A stretch of 64,000 nucleotides of DNA. Source: Thermoplasmatota archaeon. GTDB taxonomy: Archaea > Thermoplasmatota > Penumbrarchaeia > Penumbrarchaeales > Penumbrarchaeaceae. Location: contig JAWOCK010000027.1 of assembly GCA_046483845.1 (NCBI GenBank), positions 11,738-75,737 of the forward strand, given 5' to 3'. Position numbers and translations under genes: made by a program. Below, piece after piece: positions 15,491-48,500 of this stretch (positions are counted from its first letter, which is position 1; each line of letters starts with the position of its first letter). Below the pieces are notes generated by a model. It worked only from the letters and a program-made list of their open reading frames with translations. It did no database searches and was not told the origin of the DNA.

Positions 15491-15605
15491 ACGGTATGTT
15501 GGCAAATGAAATGAGGTAATATGAGTGGAACGGAGAATATGTTCCTACCTGTGCACCTCAGGACATGGAATGGGAACTTATTTTTAAAACCTTTGAAGGA
15601 AAGCA

Positions 15606-25346: not shown

Positions 25347-26702
25347 ATGCAAATGGACCCTGTCTGTGCCCTGGATTATCGATATGGAAGAAAGGAGATG
25401 AAGGACCTCATGTCGTATAGAGCGAGGGTGGAGAGATGCCTGGAGGTCGAAGCCGCACTGGCCAGGGCACATGCCGGTATAGGCAACATCCCGGAGGAGG
25501 CGGCGAAGGAGATATCCAGAAAAGCCTCGCTCGAACATGTGGACCTGGAAAGGGTGGAGGAGATCGAATCCTCCATCCGTCATGATGTGATGGCCATAGT
25601 CAATGCTCTTACCGAGCAGTGTAATGGCGAAGCGGGCAGGTATGTCCATCTGGGAGCCACATCCTATGACATCGTCGATACCGCACTGGCCATGCAGATG
25701 AGGGATGCCCTTAAGATCATCGACGATGACCTCGGGCGGCTTGAGACGGTACTGATAAGCAGATCAAAGGAGCACAGGGACCTGGTCATGCTCGGCAGGA
25801 CCCATGGACAGTATGCTGTACCGATAACCCTCGGTCTGAAGATGGTGGTATGGTTGGCCGAGTTCCATCGACACAGAACCAGGTTGAAGGAGATGCTTCC
25901 GAGACTTCTCGTGGGAAAGATGTCCGGTGCAGTGGGCACCGGAGCCGCCCTGGGAGAGAATGCATTCAGGATTGAGAAGATGGTCATGGATGAACTCGGT
26001 CTGGGAAGGGAGGAAGCTGCGACACAGATAGTACAAAGGGACAGGATGATCGAGATGCTCTCTCATCTGTCGAACATATCCGTTTCCGTGGAAAAGGTCG
26101 CAACCGAGATCAGGACGCTCCAGAGACCCGAGATAGCGGAACTTTCCGAACCCTTCGACCAGAAGAATCAGGTGGGTTCCTCAACAATGTCCCACAAGAG
26201 AAATCCAATAATCTGCGAGAACGTCACTGGGCTTGCAAGGACCCTTCGTGGTTTCCTGAACCCCGCCTTCGAAAGTGCTGTCCAGTGGAATGAGAGGGAC
26301 CTGTCCAACTCATCCTCCGAACGCCTTATACTGCCCCATGTAATGGTTTTAATGGATGAGATCCTGTACAAGATAACAAAGGTACTGGATGGTCTTCAGG
26401 TGAATAAGAAGAGTATCTCCGATAACCTGAGGAATGCGGGAGACGTCATCATGGCCGAATCGGTGATCATGACCCTGGTGAAGAGGGGAATGGGTAGACA
26501 AGATGCACATGAGGTGACAAGGAAGGCTGCAATGAGGTCCTATTCCGGGACACCCTACAAAACGGCACTACTTCAGGAAAAAAAGGTATCGGAACTCCTT
26601 TCCTCGGAGGAGCTTGAGAAGGCACTGGACCCCGCCCGATATACCGGCGTGGCGGGTGAACGGGTGGATAAGGTCATAGAGATGGTGAAAGATTCACCAT
26701 AA
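25347..26702 (+). CDS. purB: Adenylosuccinate lyase
   Basis: LDYRYG N-terminal motif, fumarate-lyase family signature GSSTMSHKRNP, ~450 aa. Track start 25344 is GTG; ATG at 25347. Confidence 0.9.
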   Translation: MQMDPVCALDYRYGRKEMKDLMSYRARVERCLEVEAALARAHAGIGNIPEEAAKEISRKASLEHVDLERVEEIESSIRHDVMAIVNALTEQCNGEAGRYVHLGATSYDIVDTALAMQMRDALKIIDDDLGRLETVLISRSKEHRDLVMLGRTHGQYAVPITLGLKMVVWLAEFHRHRTRLKEMLPRLLVGKMSGAVGTGAALGENAFRIEKMVMDELGLGREEAATQIVQRDRMIEMLSHLSNISVSVEKVATEIRTLQRPEIAELSEPFDQKNQVGSSTMSHKRNPIICENVTGLARTLRGFLNPAFESAVQWNERDLSNSSSERLILPHVMVLMDEILYKITKVLDGLQVNKKSISDNLRNAGDVIMAESVIMTLVKRGMGRQDAHEVTRKAAMRSYSGTPYKTALLQEKKVSELLSSEELEKALDPARYTGVAGERVDKVIEMVKDSP

Positions 26703-29572
26703 CAAAGTAGGCATTTCAATGGCCGAGGAAGACCAACCCTTTTCATCCAGAAGGAACCTTCCGCTGCTTTCCTCGTAGGAGAACACGTTCAGCATTTCAT
26801 TATCATGTACGATATCCTTGACCTCCGAGACATGGTGCGATACGAACATGAGCTCCCTGGACGAGAATTCCGTAGGCACCGATGTGACCCAGGAGGGAAC
26901 GGACTCGGCCATGATGATGTCGATCCTCTCTTCTTCATGCAGTGATATGTCAGATAAGATATGCGGACCCGCTCCCCATATGGTACCCCTTACAATATCG
27001 ATCAGTGCCCCCGATGATAACAGCCGCAGTATAATATCCATATCGTTGACCTTTATCAAAAGGTCCCTGGCGACAGGATGGGCCATATCAGTTCCCTTGA
27101 GGGCGACGGAAATACCGAACCAGAGGTCCTTCTGAACTGCATGATCCGCGATCTCGTGGAGATGGTCCAGACAGTTTGCTTCCCCCAGTTTATCGGGGGC
27201 TTCGAGCCGGGAAGATGCTTCCAGTACTATGGGTCCCGCCTCCTGATCGTTCCTTCCCGCAAGTACGAAGGACATGGTGAGTTTGTTATCCTTCTGTGAG
27301 CTGTCGGTTTCCAGATATTGACCGGGCACCGACCAGGTCCTGATATTGAAGGACGGACCTCTTGCTATCCATCCGGACCTGATGAAGAGGTCCCCTACCT
27401 GGTCCGAAGCTGTTTTCGGGTCCAACGGTCCGTCATCTATGTAACGGCCGCCAAGTGTTCCCCTAATGGAGAACTCTTCACTCTCCGGTCTGAGGTCGAC
27501 CCGGAGCCCTGATCCGGTCTCCAATCCCGCCTCCACCTTGTTCTCCCCGGACCTAGGGCCGAAAAAGGAGATCCTTATCTCTCCTACCGGCAGCTTGGAT
27601 GTCAGGTCCATCCTGTCCTTGATATCGGAGTAGCTGAACTTGAACATATGCCCCTCGACCATAACGGTCCCTAGGTCCTCCACATGTATCCCGGGTTTTT
27701 CTATGTGATCTCTCCAGAACAAATCTAGATCCGACCAGATGTTCGGGTCCGCTGACCAGGCACCGAGATGCTTGACCAGGGTCATTGCCTGGGTCTGGAA
27801 AATCTTTCTCAGGGTGATATCATCGATGATTCCCATTTCCATGTTCCACTGCATGTTCCTGAGCTGGGATGTGAGTAGTCCTACTCCCTGTTTTATTTCC
27901 CTGTACAATTTGTCCTCGAATATCTCCGTGGCGTTGGACTCCTCGGTGATGTACCAACCGGTCATCAGATCGGTCCAGTACATTCTGCCCTGGTTGATGT
28001 TCTCGAAGAGGAAACCATCATTGTTGGGCCGCTCGTCGAACCAGGTATGTATCCTCAGGGGAAGATCGAACGATATGGTACTTTTGGTCCTGTTCCGGTT
28101 CAGGACGTTACCCCCGTATCCTTCGTTTTCACCGTTCAGGTCCATCTCGCCCGTTATCCTGAGGTCCCACTGGACCCTGTAGTTGTGCCCAGGGGGTTTT
28201 TGCGGCGGTGGAATTGCACCGCATCTTTCACCAGGTAGTCCACCCACCGCGACCAGTTCGGAGGCATCAAGGTCAGGGTTGGAGTCGGTGAACCATGCTC
28301 TCGGTTCATCCAGCCCCTTGACCTGAAGGTCCCTGCCCAGTATCATATAGCTTTGATCAGGTTCAATCCTTGGTAGGATGCGGTGGACCGTTCCGTTCTC
28401 CACCTCGTCAAAGCGATCCCGGGGGGAGACCCCTATGCCTTCGGGGTCCGGAAATGAGGTATGATGCTCCAATGCAAAGGCATCGGTTTTGTCCGATGGT
28501 TCTCTCTCGCTCAACAGGTTTTTGTCCTCCAGTGGTGATGAAATGTCCAGCATGTTCAGGTCCTCATTGCGTCCCCATTTATCCAGGAACAGGTACCTTG
28601 CGAATATGTCAGCCGGGTCGCCGTGACCCGCCTGTAGAGCCGAGGATATCAGGTCCGGAAGATATCTCCTGAGCCGGGTCCCGGCCTTTCTCCAAGTTTC
28701 CCTATAATTCTCCTTCTCCGCTTCCCCCCATATCCTTAGCCCCGTCGGGTTGGTAACGACTTCTATGTCCTGGTCCAGGAAGAAAGCATCGATGTCGTTT
28801 ACAAGGTTCTCCGGCATCTGTCCTGTCCACCTGGATATCCTCAGGGCCAGGGCGATGTTGAAGGCCAGCTCCACGTCCCCATCGTTAAGCACGTTCAGGT
28901 CCGATTGTCCCGCGCCGGATCCCCAATCGTTCTTGGTCCTGGTCCTTGCCAGGGTGTTCAGCATGTATTCCATGTCCCTTGACATTCCGGAACTCCAGCC
29001 GTTCATGTCCTTCTCTATGATCCCGATCAGTTCGAGCAAACCCCTCTCAGGGTCCACGACCTCGTTCTCATAGGATATGATGTCTTCAAAGGACCTTTCA
29101 TCCCCTTCAAGAAGTACACGGATCTGCGTTCTGGTCCTCACAGCCGGTAGAAGGGGCAAGGCACCGGAACCACCGTACATCATCGAATTCCTTAGTAACA
29201 CCTCCGAATCACCATAAAGGTTCCCAGGGGGCACTGGTACGTCCAGGTATAATTCTGTCTCCGCAGCCTCCACATCCACCGAGAGAACGGTCATGATATG
29301 ATCTTTGACCATGACCCTATTGGATGATATCCACTCCTTGCTCTTTATCTCGATCTGTCTTTCTATCTCCTCCATGTCCATGCTCTCCATGGTGGAGAGT
29401 GTTGAATGCGTAAGGGAGATGAGCTGCTGTCTCGCGGTTCCCGTTTCAGCACCTGACCGGGTCTTTTCCTCCTTTCCTTCCAGGTAGCTGAAGATGTATA
29501 CCCCACCCATTGTAGAGATAATGAGAGTGGCTATCACGATCACTGCTCCGATCTTTCCGCTCGTTTTCATTC
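26694..29572 (-). CDS. Large secreted/membrane-anchored protein of unknown function (~959 aa)
   Basis: ATG at 29570 (MKTSGKIGAVIVIATLIISTMGG signal-anchor) preceded by GGAGGGG. ATGA-type coupling to the upstream ORF. No confident domain assignment. Confidence 0.5.
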
Positions 29573-30154
29573 CGACCCCTCCGCCTGGATTTCCAATGAG
29601 ATGAATATGGTTCTGTCCGCCCCCACCGACACCTCTCTTGTCAGTGTCAATGGCTCCCCGGTCATATTTCCCCACTGCTTTTCGTATTCGCCGGCTCCTT
29701 CTCCCCAACCCTGACCGGTGCGTGAATGGAAACCGAACGAGGAGGGGACATTGAAAACGAACTCTATCAGGTCGAAGAGCTGTGCGTCGATGACCTTGAT
29801 GTGTTCCTCATCGAACCCCTCGGAGAAGAGAAGCTCGAAGGTTATTGGAAGAGGAACGTTCTGATATGTTCCTTCATCTGTATGTACTGTATCCAGTGTG
29901 GAGGATAATAATATGTCCATCTTCCGGTCCTTAATATCTCCTTCTTCTGCCGCTTCCTCGCCTGTAAGAAAACCCGGAAGAACACCTCCTATGAACAATG
30001 CTGCGGCAAACATTATCGCGAATGAGGCTGCTGCGGCGGACATGGGTATCTCGAACCTTCTTTTCCGGGAACCCTCTTCACTGAGGATATCAGGTCCTTC
30101 GGTTTCATTCACGGAGCACCACCTCCAACCTGGCCGGCAGGAGGCTCCCGTCAT
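29567..30154 (-). CDS. Small membrane/secreted protein (195 aa), co-oriented and translationally coupled with 26694..29572
   Basis: TM segment AAAASFAIMFAAALFIGGVL. Stop overlaps the downstream start. Confidence 0.4.
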   Translation of the reverse strand: MTGASCRPGWRWCSVNETEGPDILSEEGSRKRRFEIPMSAAAASFAIMFAAALFIGGVLPGFLTGEEAAEEGDIKDRKMDILLSSTLDTVHTDEGTYQNVPLPITFELLFSEGFDEEHIKVIDAQLFDLIEFVFNVPSSFGFHSRTGQGWGEGAGEYEKQWGNMTGEPLTLTREVSVGADRTIFISLEIQAEGSE

Positions 30155-30530
30155 TCATGTCTGCCAATACTATCCTGCTGGAGCTTTTCTCACTAGCATT
30201 CGGTCTGGAATCGAAATCCTCCCTGTCCGGCAGGAATATAGTGACGTTCTTTCCACGCATGGGAGCCAATTCGATACATGCGGCACGCCCGGATATTATT
30301 TCGCTTTCATTCAGGCCTAAGCTGGACAGCGACGATATCGAGATCGCGCCTTCCCTTTCCAGGATGTCGATGAGCTCAATGCAGTCCTTTTCAAGGTCGC
30401 TGGTCCTCTGCTCATCCCCTGTCCTGTCCATGGCTATGGCTCCTCCTGCCGCAAGTGCAGCCATACCCAGGACGATCAATACCACAGGGATAACCCTTTT
30501 TGGTGGCCTTGTTGTGTCATGTCCTTCCAT
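30105..30530 (-). CDS. Small membrane protein (141 aa)
   Basis: N-terminal TM VIPVVLIVLGMAALAAGGAIAM. Overlaps the next gene by 50 bp in a different frame. Confidence 0.35.
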   Translation of the reverse strand: MEGHDTTRPPKRVIPVVLIVLGMAALAAGGAIAMDRTGDEQRTSDLEKDCIELIDILEREGAISISSLSSLGLNESEIISGRAACIELAPMRGKNVTIFLPDREDFDSRPNASEKSSSRIVLADMNDGSLLPARLEVVLRE

Positions 30531-30685
30531 ACCGGGATCAGACCTCCGTTGACCTGAATGGTATCAATAATCAATACGAATGTGATTTTAAACTTCCGGT
30601 ACAGATGCGTCACATATATCTGAAAGGTAAAACGGGGAACAGAAGGTTTAATATCCCAAAACGTTCAATCATTACGAAATGAGGT

Positions 30686-33163
30686 ATGGATATGCTGTTC
30701 GTTGACAATTTCGTCCGCACATTCTCCGTGGTTGCCCTGCTTATCATGCTGATAGCCCCCATGTCATCTTCCGGTGACGAGATGAGAAGTGGGGCAGGGG
30801 GTTTCTTTTCGGATGAGGAGATATACAGCTCCAGAAGGTCGCTCACAGGGGGAATGGATTCCGGAGATCCGGACCATGATGGCGATCTCGAGGTGGCCTT
30901 CTGTGATTTTGAGGGTAATGTCATGCTTCTGGAACCAACAGGATCCGGGGGCTTCGAGCCGAACTTCATATGGCAGGTGGAGGGAACTCAAGGTTCCAAC
31001 CGCACTCTCTTCGATCTGGTGATCCATGATCTTGACCCCGACAGACCCGGAGTTGAGATAGTAACCGCCGGAGATGTCGGACCGGAAGGCGAAAAGGATG
31101 TCTTTCTGCTGAGCTATGATGGCTCAAAATGGACCACGGATATCATTTACTCCAGTCCTTTCAAGACATTTGATATTGAGATAGGGGACATCGATCCAGC
31201 CCAGGGTGACGAGATCATCCTGTCTTCCTTCCAACATGAGGAGGATCTGGCCATCCGTTATCTCTGCCGATCGGATGATGGTTGGATCGCGAAAGAGATC
31301 CCCACAATCGAAGCACCGAAGGCAGTGACGGTGGCGGATGCTGACCCGAACATACCAGGAAAAGAGGTCTATGCCACCCTTGCCGGATGGAGTGACGAAG
31401 GGATTGAATCCCATCTAGCACAATACTTCAATGTGGGAGACCAATGGGAGGAGAATATCATCTATACACATCCTTCCGAACTGATAGCAAATGTGAAGGC
31501 TGGAGACCTCTGGAGCGGTCATGACGGGAATGAATTGATCATAACGGAATTGTCCGGATGGTGCAGATATTTCTATTACGATGGCACCGAATTCCAGATG
31601 GAGAATATATTCCAGGCGGATACGATATCGGGCTCCCCTTCGGGACTTGAAGGCCTTACAATTGGTGATTTCAATCCGCTCCACGATGGTGACGAGGCGA
31701 TGGTCACCGGATATTACAATAAAGTCACTCAGATCATCGAATCAGATGGTGAGCTCATTGCCGATCTTGCATGGGAAAAAGAAGTGGACAATCCAAGGAT
31801 GGAGATCAACGGTGTGGAAGTATGTGACGTTTTAAGCGATCATGAGGGGAATGAGGTACTTGTCGCATCACTGCAGGGCTGGATACAGCTTCTTGCGTAT
31901 GAGGAGGACGGCATCGTCCTGGAAGCCACGAAGAATGAGATCGATCTCTTTGTGGGGGGAACCGCCGAGATAGACCTCACCATAAGATCGAGAGGCATGT
32001 ACACGGGACCAGTAATGCTATCGGCGGAGCCGTATCCGGGACTGTCCATCGATATCCCGATACTTGATGATCTCGAGCAGCAGGAGACCCGGGAATTCAC
32101 AGTGGACATCGAGGCACTTGAGGATTTCGAGGGCCCATCGGAAGTGGAGCTCACGTTCACCGCTGTCTCCGGCTCTCATTCGTCCTCCGTGGATATAATG
32201 GTCAATGTAAATGCGGACGTTCAACTGATCATAACTCCCCAGGTCGGAACCCTTTACAAGGAAGGGGGGGTGACCCATATCTCCAAATTATCGCTTCTGA
32301 ATGCTTACCAATACGATTATCTGGAGATCTCCACAGGAGAAGTGGAAGGTATGGAGGTCCATGCCAATACCCCGATCTCCCCGGGTCAGGAACAGGAGAT
32401 AACCATCAACGTTCGGGGTGATCCGAAAATAGGTTCCTATTCAATACCGATCACTGCATCCTACAGCGGTATTACCGTCTCCCAGGGGTCCATCGTGATC
32501 GAGATGGTCTCCTTGGCAGAAAGCTTCGAGAGTTCCGTGAGGGAGGTGACAGGTGAGAAGAACATGTACCTAGCCGAGGTATCCTTCCACGGACCAAGGG
32601 AAATAAATATGGTCAACGTGGATATCTGGGTAGGCGATCACAAGGTCTATTCGGACGGCTTGGACTTCTCTGTCGGGGAGACCTTTACCCAGATCTTCTC
32701 CCTTGATGAGTATACGGAAGGGTTGGTCAGGATAGAGCTCTCCACCCTTGCAGGATCCAATATCCGTTCGGATTCCTTCATGGAGCTGGAGTATGTACCC
32801 GATGAAAAGCAGGAGGACAGTCCTGCACTGGTCTTCATTGCCGCTTCCATCGTCGTTGTTCTGATCATTGTTCTTCTGCTTCTGCTCATATTCTACAAAC
32901 CCACACCCGAGGACAAAAAGGACGGTGAACTCCAGGATATCGGTTCCCCGAGCAGATATAAAGCCGGAAAGGGGCCCCTCGGGCCGCGAAAGGTTCCCAT
33001 CACCGGGAAATTGGACAGACCGAGGAGCGGAAAGGTATTCCATGACATCGATGAGAGAGAGAAGAATAGAAGGGGCAATGTCAGAAGAGCTCCGCCGCGA
33101 CCCAGGAGCATGGGGGAACCCCCGAGGGATGTCAGGAGAGCTCCCCCGAGGAGAAGGTTTTAG
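30686..33163 (+). CDS. Cell-surface beta-propeller (FG-GAP/VCBS-like) protein, paralog of the window-start ORF; signal peptide, Ig-like region, C-terminal TM and Arg/Pro-rich cytoplasmic tail
   Basis: Signal peptide MDMLFVDNFVRTFSVVALLIMLIAPMSSSG. Repeats DLDPDRPGVEIVTAGD, IGDIDPAQGDEIILSSF, VADADPNIPGKEVYATLAG (the last nearly identical to VADIDKDIPGKEIYAST in ORF 1..2343). TM IAASIVVVLIIVLLLLLIFY. Tail RRAPPRPRSMGEPPRDVRRAPPRRRF. Confidence 0.6.
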   Translation: MDMLFVDNFVRTFSVVALLIMLIAPMSSSGDEMRSGAGGFFSDEEIYSSRRSLTGGMDSGDPDHDGDLEVAFCDFEGNVMLLEPTGSGGFEPNFIWQVEGTQGSNRTLFDLVIHDLDPDRPGVEIVTAGDVGPEGEKDVFLLSYDGSKWTTDIIYSSPFKTFDIEIGDIDPAQGDEIILSSFQHEEDLAIRYLCRSDDGWIAKEIPTIEAPKAVTVADADPNIPGKEVYATLAGWSDEGIESHLAQYFNVGDQWEENIIYTHPSELIANVKAGDLWSGHDGNELIITELSGWCRYFYYDGTEFQMENIFQADTISGSPSGLEGLTIGDFNPLHDGDEAMVTGYYNKVTQIIESDGELIADLAWEKEVDNPRMEINGVEVCDVLSDHEGNEVLVASLQGWIQLLAYEEDGIVLEATKNEIDLFVGGTAEIDLTIRSRGMYTGPVMLSAEPYPGLSIDIPILDDLEQQETREFTVDIEALEDFEGPSEVELTFTAVSGSHSSSVDIMVNVNADVQLIITPQVGTLYKEGGVTHISKLSLLNAYQYDYLEISTGEVEGMEVHANTPISPGQEQEITINVRGDPKIGSYSIPITASYSGITVSQGSIVIEMVSLAESFESSVREVTGEKNMYLAEVSFHGPREINMVNVDIWVGDHKVYSDGLDFSVGETFTQIFSLDEYTEGLVRIELSTLAGSNIRSDSFMELEYVPDEKQEDSPALVFIAASIVVVLIIVLLLLLIFYKPTPEDKKDGELQDIGSPSRYKAGKGPLGPRKVPITGKLDRPRSGKVFHDIDEREKNRRGNVRRAPPRPRSMGEPPRDVRRAPPRRRF

Positions 33164-33231
33164 TTAAAAACCTTTAAGTAAAAATAGCACTTTGCCCCCA
33201 TTCCTGAGTGACCTGAGCTTTGATTTTTTCT

Positions 33232-33351
33232 GTCGGGGTGGCTCAGCCTGGTGGAGCGCCGGACTCATAGGGGCCCTCGTGGCAATTCTTATTGCTCCCA
33301 GGATCCGGAGATATCCGGAGGTCGCGGGTTCAAACCCCGTCCCCGACACCA
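33232..33351 (+). tRNA. tRNA-Met or tRNA-Ile2 (anticodon CAU) with ~43-nt intron at canonical 37/38 position; CCA encoded
   Basis: Acceptor GTCGGGG/CCCCGAC, D-arm GCTC-AGCCTGGTG-GAGC, anticodon stem CCGGA/TCCGG with loop CUCAUA|intron|A (anticodon CAT at ~33266-33268). Intron ~33270..33312, containing TCCGGAG complementary to exon sequence (BHB-like). T-arm GCGGG-TTCAAAC-CCCGT, discriminator A, CCA. G1:C72 suggests elongator or Ile2 rather than initiator. Confidence 0.75.
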
Positions 33352-33418
33352 TGCATGGTTGCGACTGCGTCGCAATCATGCTTCGGTAGCTGTCAGTGAC
33401 GTAGGGGTTTGAACCTCA
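33330..33418 (+). repeat. 89-bp direct repeat copy 1 (starts inside the tRNA 3' end; 11-12 nt terminal inverted repeats)
   Basis: tcaaaccccgtccccgacaccatgcatggttgcgactgcgtcgcaatcatgcttcggtagctGtcagtgacgtaggggtttgaacctca. Termini GGTTCAAACCCC / GGGGTTTGAACC are inverted. Internal palindrome TTGCGACTGCGTCGCAA. Confidence 0.8.
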
Positions 33419-33542
33419 TTCAGCATCCTGCCAGCAGTTCAGGTCTTGGAAGTTTGCGCTAGAAGAATTGACGATATGCAAACTTGCAAGTGCGCACCAT
33501 TCCGTCTCGTCAACGATATGGGATCGAGGAATTGCTGCTGCA

Positions 33543-33631
33543 TCAAACCCCGTCCCCGACACCATGCATGGTTGCGACTGCGTCGCAATCATGCTTCGGT
33601 AGCTTTCAGTGACGTAGGGGTTTGAACCTCA
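33543..33631 (+). repeat. 89-bp direct repeat copy 2 (88/89 identical to copy 1)
   Basis: Identical to 33330..33418 except one G/T difference; lacks the 5' half of the tRNA. Confidence 0.8.
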
Positions 33632-33640
33632 GTTATTGAT

Positions 33641-33883
33641 GTGAAATTGGTCCAGGTGGTTGAGCATTTGAAATTATTTCAAGGAGAACAAGGAGAGGAT
33701 GATATACGATTTTTTTGGAGCAAGAAACTCCCAATTGGAAGTGGGCCAATGGAAAGCGGAATAAGACAGGTTGTGAATATGAGGTTGAAAAGTGCTGGGA
33801 TGTTCTGGAAGAAGGAAAATTCGGAAGGGACACATAGACCCAACAGATCTCAATCCCATCATCAGGTAGATGGGAAAAAGTGA
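33641..33883 (+). pseudogene. Remnant of a DDE transposase C-terminus (ISLre2-like motif by recollection)
   Basis: LPIGSGPMESGIRQVVNMRLKSAGMFWKKENSEG matches the conserved C-terminal IGSGxxESxxRxVxxxRLKxxGMxW signature of a DDE transposase family. Only ~50 aa of transposase-like sequence with no upstream catalytic domain, so a fragment. Confidence 0.5.
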
Positions 33884-33999: not shown

Positions 34000-35268
34000 A
34001 TGAAGATGGCGGATCTCCTTAGGATGTTGCAAAACGGTGAAAGCGATCGCCTGGAGTTCAAATCCAAGGTGACAGGTTACATTGGCGAGGAGATAATCGC
34101 CCTGGCAAATGCATTCGGTGGAACCATTCTGGTGGGAGTGAGCGACGATGGCAGGATAAAGGGTGTTAATGCCAGGAGAGCAAAGGAAAAGGCAACCCGG
34201 TACACCACCAACATCGTTCCTCCGATAAAGATATCGTTTGATATGGTCGATGTGGATGAGAAAGAGATACTTATCATCGATGTCCCACGTGTCAATAACA
34301 TCTGTTCGATCGGTGGAGTTGCCTATGTGAGAATAGGAACATCCAAGAGGCCTCTGTCGATCCAGGAGATCTTCACCATGGGGACGGAAAACCTTCTCTA
34401 TGAGATTGACAGGACCCCGACAGAGGAAAAGGAATTTGACAGAGACCTTGTTGATGATATTCTGGGATCCACCGATGAGAACAGAATGGAGGTTCTGAAA
34501 AGGATAGGTGCCATCGATAAGGATGGTTTCCTTACCCTAGCAGGTTTGCTGTTCTTTCACGAGGATCCCCAATCGATGCTCCCCCATTCATCGGTCAGGG
34601 TGATGATGGAGGGAGAAAGGTGGAAGAGGTATTCGGGTCCCATGGTCAAGGTGATAAGGGAGATAGAGAAGGACCTGGAACAACATATGGGCAGGATATC
34701 GATTCAGGTAGGTTTCAGAAGGATCGATATTCCGGAATTTCCAATGAAGGCTCTCAGGGAAGGGATAGTCAATTCCATAACACATCGAAACTATGCGATA
34801 AAATCCGAGGTGTTCATCGAGATCGGCAAGGACCATATCGAAATTCGGAATCCGGGATCGTTCCCACCTGGAACATCACCAGAGGAACCCATGCCTGTTC
34901 CAAGGAATCCAGTGCTGTACGAATTGATGTTCAGGGCGGGATATGTTGAAAGGCAGGGAAGAGGGATAGATCTCATATCGAAGGAATGTGAGGATCATCC
35001 CCTGGCCGAATTCAGGTACATTCTTACTGCCAATGCGACCAGATTGAGATTTGAAAGGTCCGACAAGGGACTTTCGGATGAACACAGGCATCTTCTGAAT
35101 TTCATTGGAGAAGAGGAAATGTCATCCACAAGGATCGCAGAAGAACTGGGTATCAGCAAACCTACGGTGCTTAGAAAGCTGAACGATCTCATTGAGATGA
35201 ACCTTGTAAGGAAGAAGGGGAATGGACCCGGGACAAGATATGAACTGACCGGAAAACTCAGAAAATAG
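34000..35268 (+). CDS. AlbA_2 (Schlafen-like putative DNA-binding) + HATPase_c_4-like + C-terminal wHTH regulator
   Basis: ESDRLEFKSKVTGYIGEEIIALANAFGGTILVGVSDDGRIKGV is the AlbA_2 (PF04326) signature. C-terminal HTH MSSTRIAEELGISKPTVLRKLNDLIEMNLV. Confidence 0.65.
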   Translation: MKMADLLRMLQNGESDRLEFKSKVTGYIGEEIIALANAFGGTILVGVSDDGRIKGVNARRAKEKATRYTTNIVPPIKISFDMVDVDEKEILIIDVPRVNNICSIGGVAYVRIGTSKRPLSIQEIFTMGTENLLYEIDRTPTEEKEFDRDLVDDILGSTDENRMEVLKRIGAIDKDGFLTLAGLLFFHEDPQSMLPHSSVRVMMEGERWKRYSGPMVKVIREIEKDLEQHMGRISIQVGFRRIDIPEFPMKALREGIVNSITHRNYAIKSEVFIEIGKDHIEIRNPGSFPPGTSPEEPMPVPRNPVLYELMFRAGYVERQGRGIDLISKECEDHPLAEFRYILTANATRLRFERSDKGLSDEHRHLLNFIGEEEMSSTRIAEELGISKPTVLRKLNDLIEMNLVRKKGNGPGTRYELTGKLRK

Positions 35269-35534
35269 ATGTTCATATAAAGGTCCTTTCCCACGATCCT
35301 CTGAGGGCCATCTACTCCAATTATTATCTAATATCAGCTTGGAGATATTTTCTTGAAAAGGAGTTTTTCCGTCTGACCCTGTTTTTCCTGATTCAATGTC
35401 CGCCCTCTTTTGATCTGAGAAATTCTTATTGTCCATTTTGATTGAAGGCAGCATATGTGTTGTGATTGTCACAATAGAAAATGGCAAGGAACAGTAACTT
35501 ATAGATGAATCGATTATAGGACCGGGGGTCAAGC

Positions 35535-37736
35535 ATGGAGGATATAAAGGGAACGATGATGGGATTCTTTATTGCAATGATAATAATGGTAGCGCCATTG
35601 ATGGTCATTTCCGCCGATTCGGTACCGCATTCGGGTTGGGGAATTGACGAACTCATAGAAACCGGAGATTCCGGAGATGCCATGTATCCACAGGTTGACC
35701 TTGACGCATCGGGGAATGCCGTGGCCGTGTGGCAACATTACGACGGCACCCGTTACAATCTCTATTCCAATAGATACAATGCGGATATTGGTTGGGGCAC
35801 CGAGGAATTGATCGAGACGGACGATTTAGGACATGCTCAATATCCTCAAATTGCGATGGATGGATCTGGCAATGCGGTGGCGGTATGGTATCAACATGAT
35901 GGCACCAGGAACAATATCTGGTCCAATCGGTACACGGTGGGTGTCGGATGGAATGAGGCGGAACTGATCGAGAGCGATGATTTAGGACATGCTCAATATC
36001 CTCAAATTGCGATGGATGGATCTGGCAATGCGGTGGCGGTATGGTATCAACATGATGGCACCAGGAACAATATCTGGTCCAATCGGTACACGGTGGGTGT
36101 CGGATGGGGCACGGCGGAACTGATCGAGACTGATAATACCGGATATGCTTTGAGTCCACAGGTTGAAATGGACCCATCAGGGAATGCCGTGGCCGTGTGG
36201 CAACATTACGACGGCACCCGTTACAATCTCTATTCCAATAGATACACTAAAGGAACAGGGTGGGGCTCGGCGGAAATAATTGAAGATGAGCAAGGTACTG
36301 TGTCCGGTTCGCAGGTTGCCCTTGACGGATCAGGTAATGCGGTGGCGGTATGGTCTCAATCCGATGGCCTCCGAAACAACATCTGGTCAAATCGGTATGC
36401 GGCAGATAGCGGTTGGGGCGAGGCGGAACTGATCGAGACGGACAATTCCGGATCTGCTTACAATCCGCAGATTGTAATGGACGGATCAGGAAATGCTATG
36501 GTGGTGTGGAGGCAGCCGAGCGGTGGGCGGAACAGCATCTGGTCCAATCGGTACACTGTGGGTGCCGGATGGGGCACGGCGGAACTTATAGAGACTGATA
36601 ATTCCGGACATGCTCAATATCCTCAAATTGCAATGGACGGATCTGGCAATGCGGTGGCGGTATGGTCTCAATCAGACGGGACCCGTTACAACATCTTGTC
36701 CAATAGGTACACGGAGGGTGCCGGATGGGATGAGGTGGAACTGATCGAGACGGTCAACTCCGGAGATGCTTTCAGGCCACAGATTGCCATTGAAGGATCT
36801 GGCAATGCGATGGCGGTATGGCACCAACATGATGGCACATTTTTGAATATCCGGGCGAACAGGTTCGTGATGCCCGATACAACTCCCCCGACCCTTGCGG
36901 TATCCTCTCCCGAGGATGGATCGGATACCGATGTTCCGGTTGTTACGGTTCATGGCACCACCGAGCCGGGATCCATCCTGAGCATAAACGGAATAATCGC
37001 AGAGGTGAGATCTGACGGGTCCTTTTCCTGCAACATTTCTCTTATGGATGGAGAAAATGCGATCGTGATAACTTCAATGGACGAATGGGAGAACAGAGAG
37101 ACAATAACAAGGACCGTGACATACAACGACCCCATCCCATCCATCCAATCTGATATCATAACTGCTTTCAATACCCTGGCTTCTTTGGGGTCCGACATCG
37201 ATTCGATCCTGGACCAGCTGGACTCGGTCACTGACAGATTGGATTCGATGGAAGATGATCTGAACTCATCGGAAGATGAGATCGCTTCCCTGCGTGAGAA
37301 CCTGACGGGATTGATATCGAAATTGAATGTTACCGAAAATGAACTTGATTCCATCAGGTATAACCTCACGATTCTCGGGTCGGACCTCTTATCCAACGAG
37401 GAAGAGATCGATTCATTATCTTCGAATCTGGGGTCATTGATATTGGAGATAGAGGCCATAAACGGTTCACTGCCGTCGATGATGTCTGATGTGGAAGCGG
37501 CGAAAGACAGGATCGATACGCTGTCCTCAGATCTTGCTTCGTTGGAAACTGACATGGAATCCATGGATGATCTGAGCTCGGAGATGGATTCCGCTAATGA
37601 GGATATCGAGGGTTTGAGGATGATGAACATCATTCTGATGGTGGCCCTTGCCATCCTGATCATTGTGATGGTCGCCGGTTTCATGATAATGATGAAGAGA
37701 ACCTCACCGAAGAAGGAAGATGATCCATTCGAATGA
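35535..37736 (+). CDS. Secreted tandem-repeat protein (about nine ~52-aa repeats, likely propeller-like) with C-terminal coiled-coil-like Ser/Asp/Leu repeats and TM anchor
   Basis: Signal peptide MMGFFIAMIIMVAPLMVISADS. Repeat unit GWGxAELIETDxxGxAxxPQIAMDGSGNAVAVWxQxDGTRxNIWSNRYTxGx. C-terminal LDSVTDRLDSMEDDLNSSEDEIASLRENLT.. heptad-like. TM MMNIILMVALAILIIVMVAGFMIMM. Confidence 0.6.
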   Translation: MEDIKGTMMGFFIAMIIMVAPLMVISADSVPHSGWGIDELIETGDSGDAMYPQVDLDASGNAVAVWQHYDGTRYNLYSNRYNADIGWGTEELIETDDLGHAQYPQIAMDGSGNAVAVWYQHDGTRNNIWSNRYTVGVGWNEAELIESDDLGHAQYPQIAMDGSGNAVAVWYQHDGTRNNIWSNRYTVGVGWGTAELIETDNTGYALSPQVEMDPSGNAVAVWQHYDGTRYNLYSNRYTKGTGWGSAEIIEDEQGTVSGSQVALDGSGNAVAVWSQSDGLRNNIWSNRYAADSGWGEAELIETDNSGSAYNPQIVMDGSGNAMVVWRQPSGGRNSIWSNRYTVGAGWGTAELIETDNSGHAQYPQIAMDGSGNAVAVWSQSDGTRYNILSNRYTEGAGWDEVELIETVNSGDAFRPQIAIEGSGNAMAVWHQHDGTFLNIRANRFVMPDTTPPTLAVSSPEDGSDTDVPVVTVHGTTEPGSILSINGIIAEVRSDGSFSCNISLMDGENAIVITSMDEWENRETITRTVTYNDPIPSIQSDIITAFNTLASLGSDIDSILDQLDSVTDRLDSMEDDLNSSEDEIASLRENLTGLISKLNVTENELDSIRYNLTILGSDLLSNEEEIDSLSSNLGSLILEIEAINGSLPSMMSDVEAAKDRIDTLSSDLASLETDMESMDDLSSEMDSANEDIEGLRMMNIILMVALAILIIVMVAGFMIMMKRTSPKKEDDPFE
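35823..36107 (+). repeat. Tandem DNA repeat: two copies of a 129-bp segment (period 156 bp) inside the repeat-protein gene
   Basis: Copy 1 ~35823..35951 and copy 2 ~35979..36107 (gatttaggacatgctcaatatcctcaaattgcgatggatggatctggcaatgcggtggcggtatggtatcaacatgatggcaccaggaacaatatctggtccaatcggtacacggtgggtgtcggatgg). More diverged copies follow to ~36900. Confidence 0.8.
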
Positions 37737-42564: not shown

Positions 42565-45500
42565 ATGGCATCCATGGAACCTGCCGACCCCCGAACATGT
42601 GAACCCGAACCCGCTCAATCATATCAGTCGCGAGATTCAAATGACACCCTCTTCTCCGAAGAATTGTACAATCAGAATCTATCTGATGTTTCCGCTTGGG
42701 TCGAGCAGGCGGGAGGAGATTCTCAAAAGGCCTTTGCACGTGTTCTGATCGTCAACAACGGTCTATCGGCATTGCGTATCATTCAGGGGATCACATCCCT
42801 ATCCAACCTGATCTCCCAGGGTAAAGATGCTAACCTCATTCAAGCTGTGGCCATCGCCTCTGACGCAGATTGGGTTGGTGATTGTCCGGAAGATGCTATG
42901 CAGCGACCCAACTATTTAAAAGAACCCGATACAATAGTTGCCCGAATTCCCGGATCACGACCCAAGGACACCTATCAAAACCAGGATGAGGTAATTGCTA
43001 TCGCCCGAGAATACAGGTGCGATGCCATTGCTGTGGGTTGGGGGCACCTTGCTGAGAATTCCACCTTTGCCTCCCGCGTGGAGAAGGAGGGATTGATCTT
43101 CATCGGGCCACATGCAGAGGCGATGAGCCTGATGGGTGACAAGATCATGTCAAAGCTCATCATGGATAAGGCAGGGGTCCCGATGCTTCCCTGGAACGGA
43201 TCAAACATATCCCTCTCTGAGATCAGATCGGATGCAAAGGACCTGATCAAAGCCCGGGAAGAAGAGGAGGGCCCTCTTTCGGATACTGACAGATACGGCA
43301 TACTATTTGATCTGGCCTATGAACGGGTGGGAATAAAAAGCATTGAAACGGCCCGTTCAGTTATAAACTCAATAGACCTGCCCGTTGTCATCAAGGCCAC
43401 TGCAGGCGGAGGCGGTCGCGGTATTCGTTTCATCACAAATGACAAAGACCTAGAATCAGGATTGAATGCTGCTGTCTCCGAGGCATCAGCTGCATTCGGG
43501 AACGATACGGTCTTCATAGAAAAAGCAGCAGACCCTGGCTCGCGGCATGTGGAGGTCCAGATCCTGGCGGATACTTCTGGGACAGTGATAGCCCTCGGTG
43601 AGCGTGAATGTTCTATCCAGCGTCACAATCAGAAACTGATCGAGGAAAGCGGTGATGACATTCCCATAAGCGATGGGACCCGGCAGATCCTCAGAAGATC
43701 TGCCGTAGCTGCGGCAAAAGCTGCCAAATATGTGAATGCCGGAACCGTGGAATTCCTTGTTGATAAAGAGGGCAACCCATATTTCATGGAGATGAACACC
43801 AGGCTGCAGGTGGAACACATTGCCACGGAGGCAGTGTATCCCGGACTCGATCTTGTGGTAGAGCAGCTGAAAATTGCCATGGGGATCCCACTTGACCATG
43901 AATTGATATCATTAAGTGATTCCCTCACGACGGGAAAGCACAGTATTTCCGTTCGAATAACTGCTGAAAATCCCAATGCAGGTTTCAGTTCTCAAACCGG
44001 CACCATCGAATCACTCGACATTCCAAATCTGGGCCCAAACACACCTCGAGCATATTTCAGTTTCTCTCAGGGAGGAACCGTTCATTCCTTTGCGGACAGT
44101 CAGATCGGGCATGTGGTGAGCAGTGCACCAACCCGTGAGGTAGCAAGACAACATATGGTGGCATTTCTGAACAAATTACGCATCAAAGGTATCCTTACAA
44201 CCCTTCAATTCTCGTCTGCGATAATGCAGGATGCAGAGTATATTGACGGCACCGGCATCCATGTTAACTGGCTCAAGCAGAGGCTCGATGACGCTCGATC
44301 GAAGGTGGGCGCATACCTTGGGGGCTCAACCGTTAAACCCGAGCTGGGACTGGCGGCGGTTGCCATACTCGATTATCTCTTCGGGAAGGCAGAATCACAG
44401 AACAAGTTCCATGCCAATCTCTTATCCTCAAGGTCGATCCCTCCCAAACTCCTTGCGAACACAGGACTGACCCGTGTGAGATTCGGTGAACATCATTACA
44501 CTGTCATCGTTCGTGAGATAGCTGATGAGCGTTTTGAACTGATCCTTGGCAATGACCGGATCGTTGTCCGGTTCTGGGAACGTTTAGGTCCATCCCGTTT
44601 CATGATGGAGTACGCTGGTATGGTATACCAGATCCACCGGATAGATGAAACCTCCAGAACCCATATTGAAGTGGGCGGGCACACCTTCACCTTCGAGCGA
44701 GACCTTGACCCAGATGTATTTCGGGCACCTATGGCAGGAATTATTTCCTCTGTCGAGGTCGAGTCCGGGCAAACAGTTGGCTTGAAGGATACCTTATTTA
44801 CCATGGAAGCCATGAAAATGATCTCTTCCCTTGATTCTCCAAGGAATGCAACCATTGCAGAAGTTTATGTAAGTGCAGGTTCCGTTGTTGAAGTGGGAAC
44901 TCCGCTGCTCAAATTTTCAGAATCAGAGACTTCAGAATCGAAGAAGGGATCACCCTCCTCCGGAGCTGATACGGAAAAGAAAGGAACCCGTCTACATTTC
45001 AAGCATGATGTGACAGATCTGTCTTCCAGGCTTGAGAGAAAGTGGGCTGAGAATGGTGATCTCAAGATCTCCATAAATAATGACGATATCAGGACCTTGA
45101 TTGGAAATATCATGCGTGGTTATCAATATTCAAACCACTTTCTATACCTGCTGACAAAAGAGCTCACCGATATGAACGAACGGCTGGGTGACGAACAGTG
45201 GATATCTCTTGTCCGAGATACGATAGAAGCATTTTACAAGGATGAGCAATATTTCAAAGGGTCCACAACTCTAACAGAGGGACTATCCATTGCAGAAATG
45301 GAAGCTGGCATAACAGATGGTGATAAGTATGATATCGCCCGCTCCCACGGGAATTTACGTTCCAAGAAGATAGTGCTGCTAGAGTTACTTGAGCCCATTT
45401 CCTCAATGGATTTCGAATCCATTGTGCCCTATCTGAAAAAGCTGACAGAGCTGGGTTATTCATATAATTACCGCGATCTATCCACCCGTGCGGAGGAACT

Positions 45501-48500
45501 CATACATCTGATCCACCCACTCCACGAGAAACCCCTCGACCTTCATCAAGTAATGGATGATATAGTTGCAGCACACGAGTCGGGAGATACCTCTCTTCAG
45601 AATGGATTGATGAAAAATGTCATGGCGGCAACGGAATCAATGCTCTCTCAACTGATCGATTATCTTTTAACCGGTTCGGGATTTGCACGAAAGATAGCTG
45701 GAAAGCTGATCATCTTGCGTGCCTATAGACGCCATAGGAATCTGAGCTGTGAATATGAACATAAAAAGGACGGGAAACGGCTCTATGTATGGCGTTTCAA
45801 TGATGCTGATAATGGTAAGGACCGTATGGGTATAGTCAGCCTGGTTGAACATGGAGAGAATGTGATCCAGAGCCTGACCCGGATGTATGAGCGCCTTCAA
45901 CAGCTCTGGGTGGAATCTCCAGAACGTGCGGATCATTCGGGAGATGTTCTGGAACTGCTCATCCAATGGCCCCCTGATATAAAGAGCAGTGACGAACTGG
46001 CTCAATACTTGAGAGATATAGTGAACAAGGTCCTTGCAAATGAAGAACTAAGGCGCGTAACATTCGTTGTTCAAACCCCTCATGACCACATACCCGGTTT
46101 CTTCACATTCAGGCCTGATGGGGAGGAAAGCTGCTTGTATATTGAGGATGCGCTGAGCAGGAACCTTCATCCTTCCCTGGCTTACCTGCTTGATCTGAAA
46201 CAGCTTGAATCACTCAGATCGAACATTGTTAAACTACCATCTGCAGATCCTTTGATACATATCTTCCATCATCGTATACCGAATCCGCGGGGGGCGGAGC
46301 TGCCGGATATCGAGAACCGGATATTTGTTAGATGCGTGATAAGGAACTCCGAGATCACCATGGGTCCTGAAGGTTCTTCCTTCCCGGCGGCAGAAGAGGC
46401 GTTTGCCAGCTCGCTACGGCATCTGCGGGTCTCATATTCTGCAACTGGAGCCCGATCCCATAGTAATCAGATCTACCTGGCATTTGCAAAACCGATCAAA
46501 CTATCTTTTGAGGAGTATCAGAAGATCGTAAAACGAATGAACCGCCACGTGAGTGATTACGCTGATGTTGACCTGACCAGAACGGAGATACGCGGCCGTC
46601 TTGATTCCTGGCAGGCAACCGGTAAGAGCATCGATATGCTCCTGGTGGTGAATAATCCAACAGGATTGCTCACGGAGATGAAAGAATACGTTATAGACAC
46701 TTCTGTTATGAGCGGTGCCAAAAAGGTACAAATGCTCCTACCCTACAGTGAGTTTGTCAAGCAGCATGAAAAACAGGAATATACACCTTCTGAAGATCAA
46801 TGGATACCTTTCAGCGAGCTGATCAAACCGATGACCGCAGTGGACAAGAAGCGTGTTATCCGTCGTCAAAAAGGTAAGGTATACGTTTACGACAGACTCT
46901 CACTTCTTCGAAATGAGCTGGAATACATATGGTCCTCATCTGGAAAGGATAAACCTGATGATATACTGACCGTTCAGGAGCTGATAACCGACCCGGAAGG
47001 AGCTGTAGTTACCGTCGAACGGCCGCCGGGTAAGAATGATCTGTCAATTGTGGCATGGCGTGTCCGTATCAAGTCACCCGAGGCGGGATCTGGCCGGGAT
47101 CTGATCGTGGTTTCCGGGGATATGACACTCAAAGGCGGTTCGGTCTCCATGGAGGAGGACATTCTTTTTGCGGGAGCAGCCAGGATCGCCCGTGATGAAG
47201 GCATTCCGTTCGTATATTTCGCTGAAGGGAGCGGTGCTCGTATAGGCCTATCGACGATAGTTACCCAAAGGTTATCGTATGATGATGAAAAAGATGTGTT
47301 CTATGTTGACCGGAAAACATATTCTCTTTTGGAACCACTGGTAATCGGACATCGGGACGCGGAGAACACCTCGCGGTATATCATTACCTCGATCCTCGGA
47401 GGTTTGCCGGGTATAAGCATAGCAGAAGAGGATGAATATCTCTATGTTTCCGAAGCAACCTACAATCGGTTCAAAGATCGAATGACCGCACATCCGATCA
47501 CCGTCATGGTCGGCTCTGAAGAAAAGACACGTTGGGTGATCGATTCGATCGAAAAACAGTACCCTCTGATCAATTTCGAGAACCTCTCCGGTTCGGCGAT
47601 GATGGCAAGGGCTTGTTCGTTGACCTATCACAGTGTCCCCACGATGGCCGTCGTAACCGATACATGCACAGGTATCATCGCATATAATGTCCGTCTGTTG
47701 AAACGTATCATTCAAACCAGGAACTCGGAGATCATATTGACCGGATACAGAGCCTTGAACTCCCTCTATGGCGGCGATGATGTTTATTCCAGCAATCGTG
47801 AGCTTGGAGGGCCACATATCATGGGCCCGAATGGGCTGTCTCATCACATAGTAGACGATGAAGGTCAAGCATGTAAAACCGTTCTTTCCTGGCTTTCGGG
47901 CGTTCCGGTCAAGCGTGGATCTCCATCTCCCAAACTGGAAACGGAAGACCCGATCGAGCGGGACATTTCCGTTACACTCATAGGACCGGGCGGTCTTATC
48001 GAATCACCTCGTCCCGAGGCTGAACGACCTGTCCCCTATGATTCAATGGAGCTGGTCCGTACCATTTTCGATGAAGGTTCAACTCAGGAGGCCATGGAAG
48101 AATGGGGGAGCACCGTTCATGTGGGACGTGCAACCATTGGGGGTTATCCCATAGGTTTTATTTCAGTGGAGACCAGAACAGTCGAGAAGGTTGTGCCGGC
48201 CGATCCTTCAATTGAAGGGTCAGCACCTGTTGGGATCAACCAGTTTGGACAGGTATGGTATCCTGATTCTGCCTTCAAGACCTCCCAGTGGATACAGTTT
48301 ATGAAAAATGAACGCCGACCCCTTATCATCCTCCCCAACTGGCGTGGTTTTGCAGGTGGTAAGATCGATCTGTACGAGGAGATTGTTAAGTTCGGTGCCA
48401 TGATCGTTGATGAACTGGTATATTTCGACCTACCTGTTATCCTGTACATCCCTCCATATGCTGAACTGCGGGGAGGAGCCTGGGTGGTTATCGATCCGCA

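Follow-up and report, generated by a model that had tools for sequence, protein, structure and literature searches.

The locus examined here raises the question of why the 3′ end of a transfer RNA (tRNA) gene, together with its flank, is present twice in close succession in the DNA of a Thermoplasmatota archaeon. We analysed 64,000 nt of a metagenome-assembled genome (MAG) of this organism (GCA_046483845.1, contig JAWOCK010000027.1, 11,738-75,737); the whole stretch is called the window, and statements on copies, integrases and transposases in the window cover these 64 kb. The repeat starts inside a tRNA(CAU) gene, and its two 89-nt copies enclose DNA that recurs, as part of a structured module without open reading frames (ORFs), at the same tRNA gene in related genomes. 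We consider it probable that the 89-nt copies delimit a miniature integrative cassette that lacks ORFs, belongs to a tRNA-anchored cassette array and is moved in trans. In the following, unit A denotes the 22-nt tRNA 3′ end (the 22-mer) with a hairpin (H1) and a box, S the remaining core, and module M the sum A+S (213 bp in the window); loci and contigs from other genomes are cited by L numbers.

The repeated unit and the tRNA(CAU) gene

A repeat finder located the two copies at 33330-33418 and 33543-33631, 88/89 identical (99%) with a G/T difference at unit position 63, starting 213 nt apart and separated by a 124-nt spacer, which bore out the 89-bp direct repeat described at this identity and offset in the earlier note. 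Each half of the unit occurred exactly twice in the window and had 0 matches in 100 dinucleotide-preserving shuffles of it, and sensitive blastn found no third copy of the unit in the 64 kb. The repeat starts at U55, in the T-loop of the tRNA(CAU), and runs through the CCA, the tRNA gene being left intact. It comprises 22 nt of tRNA (19 nt plus CCA) and 67 nt of flank, in keeping with the claim that the tRNA end had been duplicated together with a 67-nt flank. The tRNA gene and the parts of the repeated unit lie as follows.

33232-33351, + strand: tRNA(CAU) gene of elongator Met or Ile2 type, with a 43-nt intron and encoded CCA (Rfam RF00005 and hand parsing)
33330-33351, + strand: 22-mer TCAAACCCCGTCCCCGACACCA, from tRNA U55 to CCA, the minimal repeat, resembling the core of an attachment (att) site
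33330-33418, + strand: unit A, copy 1 (22-mer, H1 and box), one long imperfect palindrome
33353-33381, + strand: hairpin H1, with a 13-bp stem and a 3-nt loop, directly after CCA
33391-33415, + strand: box TGTCAGTGACGTAGGGGTTTGAACC, an inverted imperfect copy of the tRNA 3′ end
33543-33631, + strand: unit A′, copy 2, which closes module 1 and opens a truncated second module

Rfam RF00005 matched the tRNA gene at 33232-33348 with 54.1 bits. Parsing by hand gave a 5′ exon at 33232-33269, an intron of 43 nt at 33270-33312 (position 37/38) and a 3′ exon including CCA at 33313-33351; the G1-C72 pair shows that the tRNA is not an initiator. ARAGORN in default mode overlooked the gene because of the 43-nt intron, and only Rfam detected it; annotation pipelines may overlook the intron-bearing tRNA(CAU) at 33232-33351 as well, and hence also the nature of the repeat. 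Orthologues with an intron at the same position were found in 10 relatives, and the exact 22-nt tRNA 3′ end in ten loci from Thermoplasmatota and related archaeal MAGs.

The inverted termini claimed for the unit, GGTTCAAACCCC / GGGGTTTGAACC, hold at 12/12 positions in copy 1 and over only 9 nt in copy 2, because the GGT is part of the tRNA body. The internal palindrome proved longer than described, GCATGGTTGCGAC-TGC-GTCGCAATCATGC (13 bp with one G.T), and is hairpin H1; the inverted repeat seen in the spacer, AAGTTTGC/GCAAACTT, is present and forms part of a 13-bp hairpin (H2, 33445-33457 with 33478-33490). Within the box, GGGGTTTGA is exactly complementary to TCAAACCCC. The whole 89-nt unit folds as one long imperfect hairpin (−28.2 kcal/mol with DNA parameters, z = −6.6, 0/200 shuffles as good), and in each of the six lineages tested unit A (89-92 nt) likewise formed one long hairpin (z = −2.8 to −9.1).

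The earlier note had also raised the prospect of a unit unique to this locus and produced by an assembly artefact; a one-off local tandem duplication by slippage, without biological meaning, belongs to the same class of explanation. The window does come from a MAG, its exact sequence is missing from genome, viral and JGI metagenome collections, and an exact search with the hairpin 21-mer of the unit found it in none of the genome, viral and metagenome contig collections. The same A-S-A′ arrangement was nevertheless present in independent assemblies of different species (L018 and L025), and A-S-22-mer in five more; a tandem duplication, moreover, would give A-S-A-S, yet a different type of S follows A′. 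In addition, the Logan contig L002, from another run (SRR31818007), begins exactly 30 nt (k−1) before the end of copy 2, a start point that fits a k=31 graph breaking at the end of a two-exit repeat. Taken together, these findings leave an artefact or meaningless duplication highly improbable. In L002 1-30 (window 33602-33631) the single mismatch position, beside the right flank, reads G as in copy 1 of the window and not T, and the two copies are probably identical to each other in the SRR31818007 population.

Module M at orthologous tRNA genes

Syntenic loci were reached through homologues of the protein encoded upstream of the window tRNA. Module M with the T54/U55 boundary was found at the orthologous tRNA in eight loci (the window, L015, L017, L018, L020, L023, L025 and L029). 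The second 22-mer lies 214 nt from the first in L015, 191 nt in L018, 209 nt in L020, 265 nt in L023, 193 nt in L025 and 175 nt in L029, and L017 has a truncated second copy of it after the orthologous tRNA; the 22-mer TCAAACCCCGTCCCCGACACCA is the sole repeated part in L015, L020, L023 and L029. All modules share one collinear order, CCA, H1, box TGTCAGYGACSYAGGGGTTYGAACC, P2, H2, P4, GCA and 22-mer (alignments A3 and A7). Across loci the core S measures ~95-180 nt, has no ORF and contains three hairpins, and in the window no ORF of at least 70 aa lies wholly inside it (33419-33542). In the window the core and its predicted helices have the following positions.

33419-33542, + strand: core S (type 1), without ORF, with P2, H2 and P4 (alignments A3, A4 and A7)
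33413-33416 with 33441-33444, + strand: helix P2
33445-33457 with 33478-33490, + strand: hairpin H2, with the conserved 20-nt loop GCTAGnnGRATTGACGATAT
33491-33503 with 33528-33542, + strand: helix P4
33632-33674, + strand: second core remnant (S type 4), ending in its H2 loop

The complete M of the window extends over 33330-33542 plus the closing 22-mer, and a truncated second M over 33543-33674. The latter was matched at 33548-33673 by an nhmmer profile of nine modules, over its positions 6-139 (E = 5e-20). The sequences GATGTGAAATTGGTCCA (17/17) and GGTGGTTGAGCATTTGAAAT (20/20) after A′ are identical to the S of L028 (module sequence at 6934-7024 there). Since the second S breaks off in its H2 loop, the layout of the window is tRNA-[A-S1]-[A′-S4 remnant]. 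Tandem second copies of M were thus present in the window and also in L018 (4161-4308), and M occurs away from the tRNA within arrays in L028 (6849-7123, between two degenerate 22-mers) and in L017 (9376-9531).

The S region is mosaic. The S4 remnant of the window agrees with the S of L028 at 37/37 nt, while the neighbour proteins of the two loci are only ~36% identical. Conversely, L015 and L017 have neighbour proteins that are 98% identical and identical tRNA introns, and the loops of their P4 are unrelated, the P4 loop of L017 resembling that of the distant L020 (neighbour protein 43-44% identical). Judged from these sequence comparisons, there are signs of exchange of S between lineages.

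M is absent from L024 and L021, and the first of these supplied the syntenic comparison that the earlier note had proposed for finding an empty site. L024 and its sister L025 have the same genes on both sides and neighbour proteins that are 80% identical, and they differ by a 193-bp A+S block: L024 consists of the tRNA and a single unit A, L025 of the tRNA followed by A, S and A′. As to which L025 copy is orthologous to the single unit of L024, the match over H1 (24/44 versus 26/44) does not decide.

The distribution of the module bears directly on the proposal that it is a miniature inverted-repeat transposable element (MITE), mobilised by a transposase through terminal inverted repeats and landed by chance beside the tRNA. 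The small size, the lack of an ORF, the 12-bp perfect inverted repeat and the imperfect inverted ends of the spacer (CAGCAGTTC / GAATTGCTG) would suit such an element. The inverted repeat, however, bounds the repeated unit and not the insert, its left arm being the tRNA itself, and the flanking duplication of 22-89 nt is always the tRNA 3′ end instead of a short fixed target-site duplication. No other copies are dispersed over the 64 kb, every copy of M in 10 genomes lies at tRNA(CAU) or in its array, and Pfam searches of all large ORFs found no transposase in the window. A transposase-driven MITE is therefore very improbable; what survives of the miniature element suggested in the earlier note is an ORF-less element whose end mimics the T-arm in inverse.

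The architecture of unit A as a whole recurs in 9/9 relatives whose tRNA has no other element directly behind it. The box lies 50-55 nt past GACAC in 9/9 loci of the clade in which the tRNA is not directly followed by another element (chance rate 3.2%), occurs at the same spacing after the second copy in the window, L018 and L025, and is absent from tRNAs outside the clade. Box and T-loop covary in three variants, namely TTCAAACCCC / GGGGTTTGAA in the window, L020 and L029, TTCGAACCCC / GGGGTTCGAA in L015, L017, L023, L024 and L025, and TTCGAAGCCC / GGGCTTCGAA in L018. The impression gained by eye that a degenerate box follows every 22-mer copy did not survive a strict search (at most 1 mismatch in 9), which returned only units linked to M.

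The helices predicted for M are H1, P1 (in which the box pairs with nt 1-9 of the second 22-mer), P2, H2 and P4. In alignments of 6-8 sequences, which fall into about four types, RNAalifold predicted 44 pairs for the eight modules of A7, 24 of them with compensatory changes, and in the six modules of A4 88.9% of cells were paired, 21 pairs showed double changes, 0/500 shuffles were as good, and the covariation score was 0.415 compared to at most 0.144 with slid partners. The H1 pairs all carry double changes (6/6 in A4 and 7/7 in A7), the sequence of H1 being lineage-specific and the hairpin itself retained. With 24/44 base pairs kept by compensatory change, the insert represents a conserved family and not decaying DNA, and the word scar, used for it in the earlier note, has to be given up.

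The main rival reading, serious but in our view unlikely, takes this structure to mean that M is in the first place a non-coding structured RNA, or else a structured 3′ trailer transcribed together with tRNA(CAU). The box would then pair with the T-loop of the tRNA or with the second 22-mer, so that helix P1 encloses three hairpins, the duplicated tRNA 3′ end would provide a tRNA-like ...ACCA 3′ end or a processing signal, and changes in copy number would be secondary, arising by unequal crossing-over between the repeats with no integrase for M. The compensatory pairs, the covariation score and the three box/T-loop variants all accord with an RNA, and S is about as conserved as the tRNA intron. 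The consensus fold is also better on the + strand, in the sense of the tRNA (−42.8 kcal/mol), than on the − strand (−30.9 kcal/mol), and this modelled difference lends weak support to + strand RNA or to a single strand. Furthermore, read-through past tRNA(CAU) is likely because no T-run is met before 33710-33716, whereas the tRNA-Pro gene of the window has T5 directly after its 3′ end.

Several observations speak against an RNA as the primary nature of M. Because the hairpins are near-perfect palindromes, compensatory changes cannot separate RNA from single-stranded DNA or symmetric protein sites. Rfam searched at a permissive E-value yielded no family but only tRNA matches, the next being SNORD94 at 13 bits (E = 2.4). 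The T5 or T6 runs within M of L015 and L029 would terminate archaeal transcription, M lies deep in arrays, far from the tRNA promoter, in L028 and in the second copy of L017, truncated copies exist, and L024 and L021 do without M altogether. At the second 22-mer no tRNA-like domain can be formed because the 5′ T-stem and acceptor strands are lacking, and an RNA leaves unexplained why 22-mers bound gene cassettes and an integrase element. We also considered M as a bulge-helix-bulge motif, a C/D-box small RNA, a transfer-messenger-RNA-like or tRNA-like domain and an IS110 bridge RNA, and rejected these candidates, as motifs or partner strands were missing or no matching recombinase was nearby. 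An RNA and a mobile cassette are not exclusive readings, since a mobile cassette can carry an RNA gene.

Integrases and cassettes at the tRNA 3′ end

In two relatives an integrase gene, or what is left of one, occupies the same site. L021 contains an intact tyrosine recombinase gene; 62 nt separate the end of this gene from the tRNA 3′ end, and the interval includes repeats of the CCGAACCCCGAC type. The gene product has the domains Phage_integrase and SAM_4; the best NCBIfam match is the archaeal XerA type at 186 bits, below the cut-off of 220, and the integron-integrase model gave 97 bits with a cut-off of 265. In L015 the last 32 codons of a homologue of this integrase (53% identity, E = 5e-6) directly follow the second 22-mer. 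A search for further relatives of the L021 integrase returned 9 proteins, none traceable to the MAG of the window. A PDC-S01 ATPase adjoins the tRNA of L021.

Other inserts at the site are bounded by 22-mers as well. Such cassettes comprise AbiEi/AbiEii in L011 and a DUF7557+ParE toxin-antitoxin pair in L028; in L017 (7970-9531) a methyltransferase and a fragment of a TdeIII-like restriction enzyme (8128-9133) lie between two truncated units. The sequence that follows copy 2 in L029 has a homologue in L010, behind the 22-mer there. Where the 22-mer stands without a tRNA body, in L004, L010, L011 and L028, it likewise starts at T54/U55, with left flanks that are quite different.

Some further details of these arrays were recorded. 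The truncated units of L017 consist of TCGAACCCCG, a short loop and the box, and the second continues into a type-1 S that runs into a glyoxalase gene. A type I-G/U-like Cas3 adjoins the L011 array. Before tRNA-less 22-mers in different MAGs there is a conserved arm of ~70-110 nt (CTCTCTTGAAGGCATCCAGAAGAGAT..TTTTGACA..TTTTGAG), and arm and 22-mer occur together in L004 7837-7968 (− strand), L010, L011 4167-4271 and 6052-6156, and L028 6700-6870. A 5′-side counterpart of the 3′-end repeats was seen in L006 (2803-3031, Thermoplasmata archaeon AUK251), where the complete tRNA is preceded, at distances of 188 and 102 nt, by two additional copies of its initial 23 nt (5′ end to D-loop).

If M is an integrative cassette, a tyrosine recombinase would recognise the T-arm of tRNA(CAU) and exchange strands in the T-loop. 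The inserted DNA would bring its own U55-to-CCA copy, so that the tRNA stays intact, and the distal limit of the insert would be marked by the second 22-mer; with each further event at this site, older inserts would be displaced downstream. Having no recombinase of its own, M must be, or have been, moved in trans. A recombinase would have made the junctions, would act in trans and may still be active, and A and A′ would have been homogenised after insertion. The integrase footprint proposed in the earlier note holds in so far as the duplication in the T-loop is of att type, the 22-mer bounds other inserts and abuts an integrase (L021 and L015), and sister loci differ by presence and absence; that an integrase acted at the window itself we infer. 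The truth appears to combine both of the alternatives considered in that note, the integrase-mediated insertion and the miniature element.

Several points weigh against a cassette moved in trans. Pfam searches of all large ORFs, and tblastn with the L021 integrase, found no integrase in the window, and no recombinase has so far been tied to M. Neither S nor H1 resembles the sequence around the L021 integrase or around the L015 remnant, so that M is not a simple deletion derivative of the L021 element. Viral and plasmid-like contigs gave no match for the 22-mer (in both T-loop variants) or for two S motifs, and no free or virus-borne copy of M was found in the collections searched. L028 and L020, tried as a second pair of empty and filled sites, were rejected, the shared flank being ~17 nt with a score of 20 against a shuffle mean of 17. 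The hairpins of S conserved by compensatory change, the better fold of the + strand and the lack of oligo-T before 33710 fit a transcribed RNA at least equally well. A and A′ are nearly identical, at 88/89 positions in the window and at 83/88 aligned positions in L018, yet each is followed by a different S, and H1 is completely different from one lineage to another; near-identity of A and A′ is not predicted by plain integration of a foreign circle, and therefore gene conversion or a mechanism that duplicates A is needed. The box is present in L024 too, which has no M, and it covaries with the T-loop, neither of which a simple core-site model requires; the box might pair with the T-loop at the level of RNA or single-stranded DNA, or else the overlap sequence must be common to all partner sites of a genome. 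Finally, a circle of 213 bp is a stiff substrate for excision.

The palindromic form of unit A leaves room for another kind of recombination. In place of a double-stranded core site, the unit could be a folded single-strand site like an integron attC or the attP hairpin of CTX phage: 22-mer and box would pair into a T-arm-like duplex, which an XerA-like recombinase would join to the tRNA gene. [quoted passage not shown] An imperfect palindrome of ~90 nt, with conserved ends spaced by 50-55 nt and a freely varying centre, is indeed found in every lineage, its ends covary with the tRNA T-loop, and the arrays are made of cassettes of 0.2-2 kb that carry toxin-antitoxin, Abi and restriction-modification genes, mostly without an integrase. 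The consensus ends RYYYAAC ... GTTRRRY are absent, however, the ends here being GTTCRAAC / GTTYGAAC; as read from the units, GTTCAAAC / GTTTGAAC (or GTTCGAAC) do not fit the R''/R' core consensus of attC. In the strict search the box belonged only to units linked to M and did not follow the 22-mers that bound the AbiE and ParE cassettes (L004, L010, L011 and L028). The best model for the L021 recombinase bears the name 'site-specific tyrosine recombinase/integron integrase' (XerA type), but the score stays under the family cut-off (186 vs 220 bits), and the gene lies inside the array instead of divergently beside attI. We consider a folded single-strand site doubtful. The wider proposal of a clade-wide integron-like platform in uncultured Thermoplasmatota, anchored on the 3′ end of tRNA(CAU), with a ~90-nt hairpin site formed by the T-loop/acceptor strand and a co-evolving inverted copy of it, where an XerA-like recombinase acting in trans would capture and shuffle small defence cassettes as well as M, is speculative and, in our judgement, unlikely.

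Surroundings, significance and known systems

Two features in the immediate surroundings of the tRNA gene and the module deserve separate mention.

33164-33191, + strand: AT-rich box TTAAAAACCTTTAAGTAAAAATAGCAC, a putative archaeal promoter with B recognition element (BRE) and TATA box, ~40-70 nt upstream of the tRNA
34000-35268, + strand: gene with Schlafen/AlbA_2, HATPase_c_4 and winged helix-turn-helix (HTH) domains (Pfam), lineage-specific

The AT-rich box TTAAAAACCTTTAAGTAAAAATAGCAC is, by its sequence, the putative promoter of tRNA(CAU), and is nearly identical at the syntenic position in L015 (6596-6622). The protein of the gene upstream of the tRNA corresponds to locus tag R6V01_03230 (100% identity). 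Upstream of tRNA(CAU), at 26694-33163 of the window, a block of four genes without assigned function is present in all syntenic loci, in the order of a ~950-1000-aa protein, ~180-aa and ~130-aa proteins (− strand) and an FG-GAP-like protein of ~800-850 aa. The block comes after adenylosuccinate lyase and is retained in every relative, although protein identity is only 35-50%.

Downstream, the AlbA_2/HATPase_c_4/HTH gene occupies a variable stretch between the tRNA and a conserved gene with a Glucodextran_B domain (35535-37736); L015 lacks it, and there the tRNA region leads directly into the orthologous Glucodextran_B-domain gene. It is a probable cargo of the tRNA array. A larger element enclosing it, bounded by a diverged third copy of the repeat, was sought and rejected, none being present at up to 6 mismatches, and the stretch to its right (35269-35534) contains no 22-mer or box-like sequence and no recognisable att site.

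By Pfam, the large ORFs of the window are otherwise ordinary chromosomal genes. At 42565-48894 (+ strand) they include a single-chain acetyl-CoA carboxylase (ACC) of 2109 aa with biotin carboxylase, biotin carboxyl carrier protein (BCCP), ACC_central (PF08326) and carboxyltransferase domains, a multidomain ACC of the eukaryotic or actinobacterial type, here in an archaeal (Thermoplasmatota) MAG. The GC content is 0.40-0.45 in window 1-15000 and >0.50 beyond 16000. A genomic island in the low-GC part beside tRNA-Pro was considered and rejected: the part holds FEN1, UbiA and a DnaK/DnaJ/GrpE operon, and no integrase. The tRNA-Pro(CGG) gene itself (15416-15491, − strand), with its T5 run directly after the 3′ end, has neither an encoded CCA nor a palindromic flank.

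Partial tRNA copies beside tRNA genes are routinely taken as dead scars, whereas here the intervening DNA is a conserved structured module that recurs at the same tRNA across lineages with a neighbour protein only 35-50% identical. If it is a cassette mobilised in trans, archaeal tRNA islands can be built of integrase-less mini-cassettes, and M would be among the smallest integrative elements known to us. If it is an RNA, it represents an undescribed family tied to tRNA(CAU). If the integron-like platform exists, it would be a system of cassette capture separate from integrons, with M possibly an RNA gene or a helper of recombination. Either way, a palindromic site that co-evolves with the T-loop provides a testable substrate for archaeal tyrosine recombinases in a phylum without genetic tools.

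Among known systems, cis-mobilizable elements (CIMEs) of streptococci are flanked by attL and attR, lack recombination genes and undergo site-specific accretion with integrative and conjugative elements (ICEs). M resembles them in being flanked by att-type sites and in carrying no genes for recombination or transfer. The order tRNA-M-22-mer-integrase remnant in L015 may reflect a comparable tandem accretion at a second att site, with no intact tandem example among the loci. A CIME has a length of kilobases, contains genes and is plainly a derivative of a related ICE. M, in contrast, is ~0.2 kb long and non-coding, has an archaeal host, and is unrelated in sequence to the one integrase element observed at this site.

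With the archaeal tyrosine-integrase elements that target tRNA genes (SNJ2-type, and pNOB8-type with a non-split gene) the locus shares a direct repeat of the tRNA 3′ end that flanks the insert and regenerates the tRNA. In SNJ2-type elements the 3′ end of the integrase gene lies near the att core and archaeal tRNA-Met genes are targets (PMC5861418); likewise, the 3′ end of the L021 integrase gene is a few tens of nt from the att core, and the target has a CAU anticodon. M differs in its 213 bp without an ORF and in a repeat of 89 instead of 14 nt, which is itself a long palindrome, and the window has no integrase or accessory genes.

Tycheposons of Prochlorococcus integrate at tRNA genes, and newcomers push older elements into the island (10.1101/2020.12.28.424599). 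The inserts at tRNA(CAU) follow this pattern of serial integration, which is described for SNJ2-type elements as well (PMC5861418). Scattered partial tRNA copies, integrase fragments and adaptive or defence cargo are common to both (10.1101/2020.12.28.424599). Tycheposons, however, carry integrase and replication modules, while the cassettes described here are mostly integrase-less and very small, and one recurrent member is an ORF-less structured module.

Like integron attC sites and those in clusters of attC sites lacking integron integrases (CALINs), the unit is an imperfect palindrome with a variable centre between conserved inverse ends; such sites measure ~60-140 nt (PMC9668308), and the 89-92 nt of unit A lie within the 57-141 nt of attC. 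Integron arrays, too, consist of small cassettes, often without a nearby integrase and with toxin-antitoxin cargo, and ORF-less cassettes are known among them. The differences are that the attC consensus ends are missing, that the primary site is a tRNA gene and not attI beside intI, that the left arm of the palindrome is functional tRNA sequence, and that the window holds neither an IntI-type integrase nor attI; the archaeal integron paper makes no mention of tRNA (PMC9668308).

MITEs, finally, are like M in being small, non-coding, non-autonomous and hairpin-forming, but M has no transposase-type target-site duplication, is not dispersed over the 64 kb and is bounded by att-type repeats of a tRNA. 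The feature is thus real and conserved and is not a scar, and it follows a known principle, the site-specific integration targeted to tRNA genes; what is unusual here is its size, the absence of genes, the conserved structure and a palindromic site that co-evolves with the tRNA.

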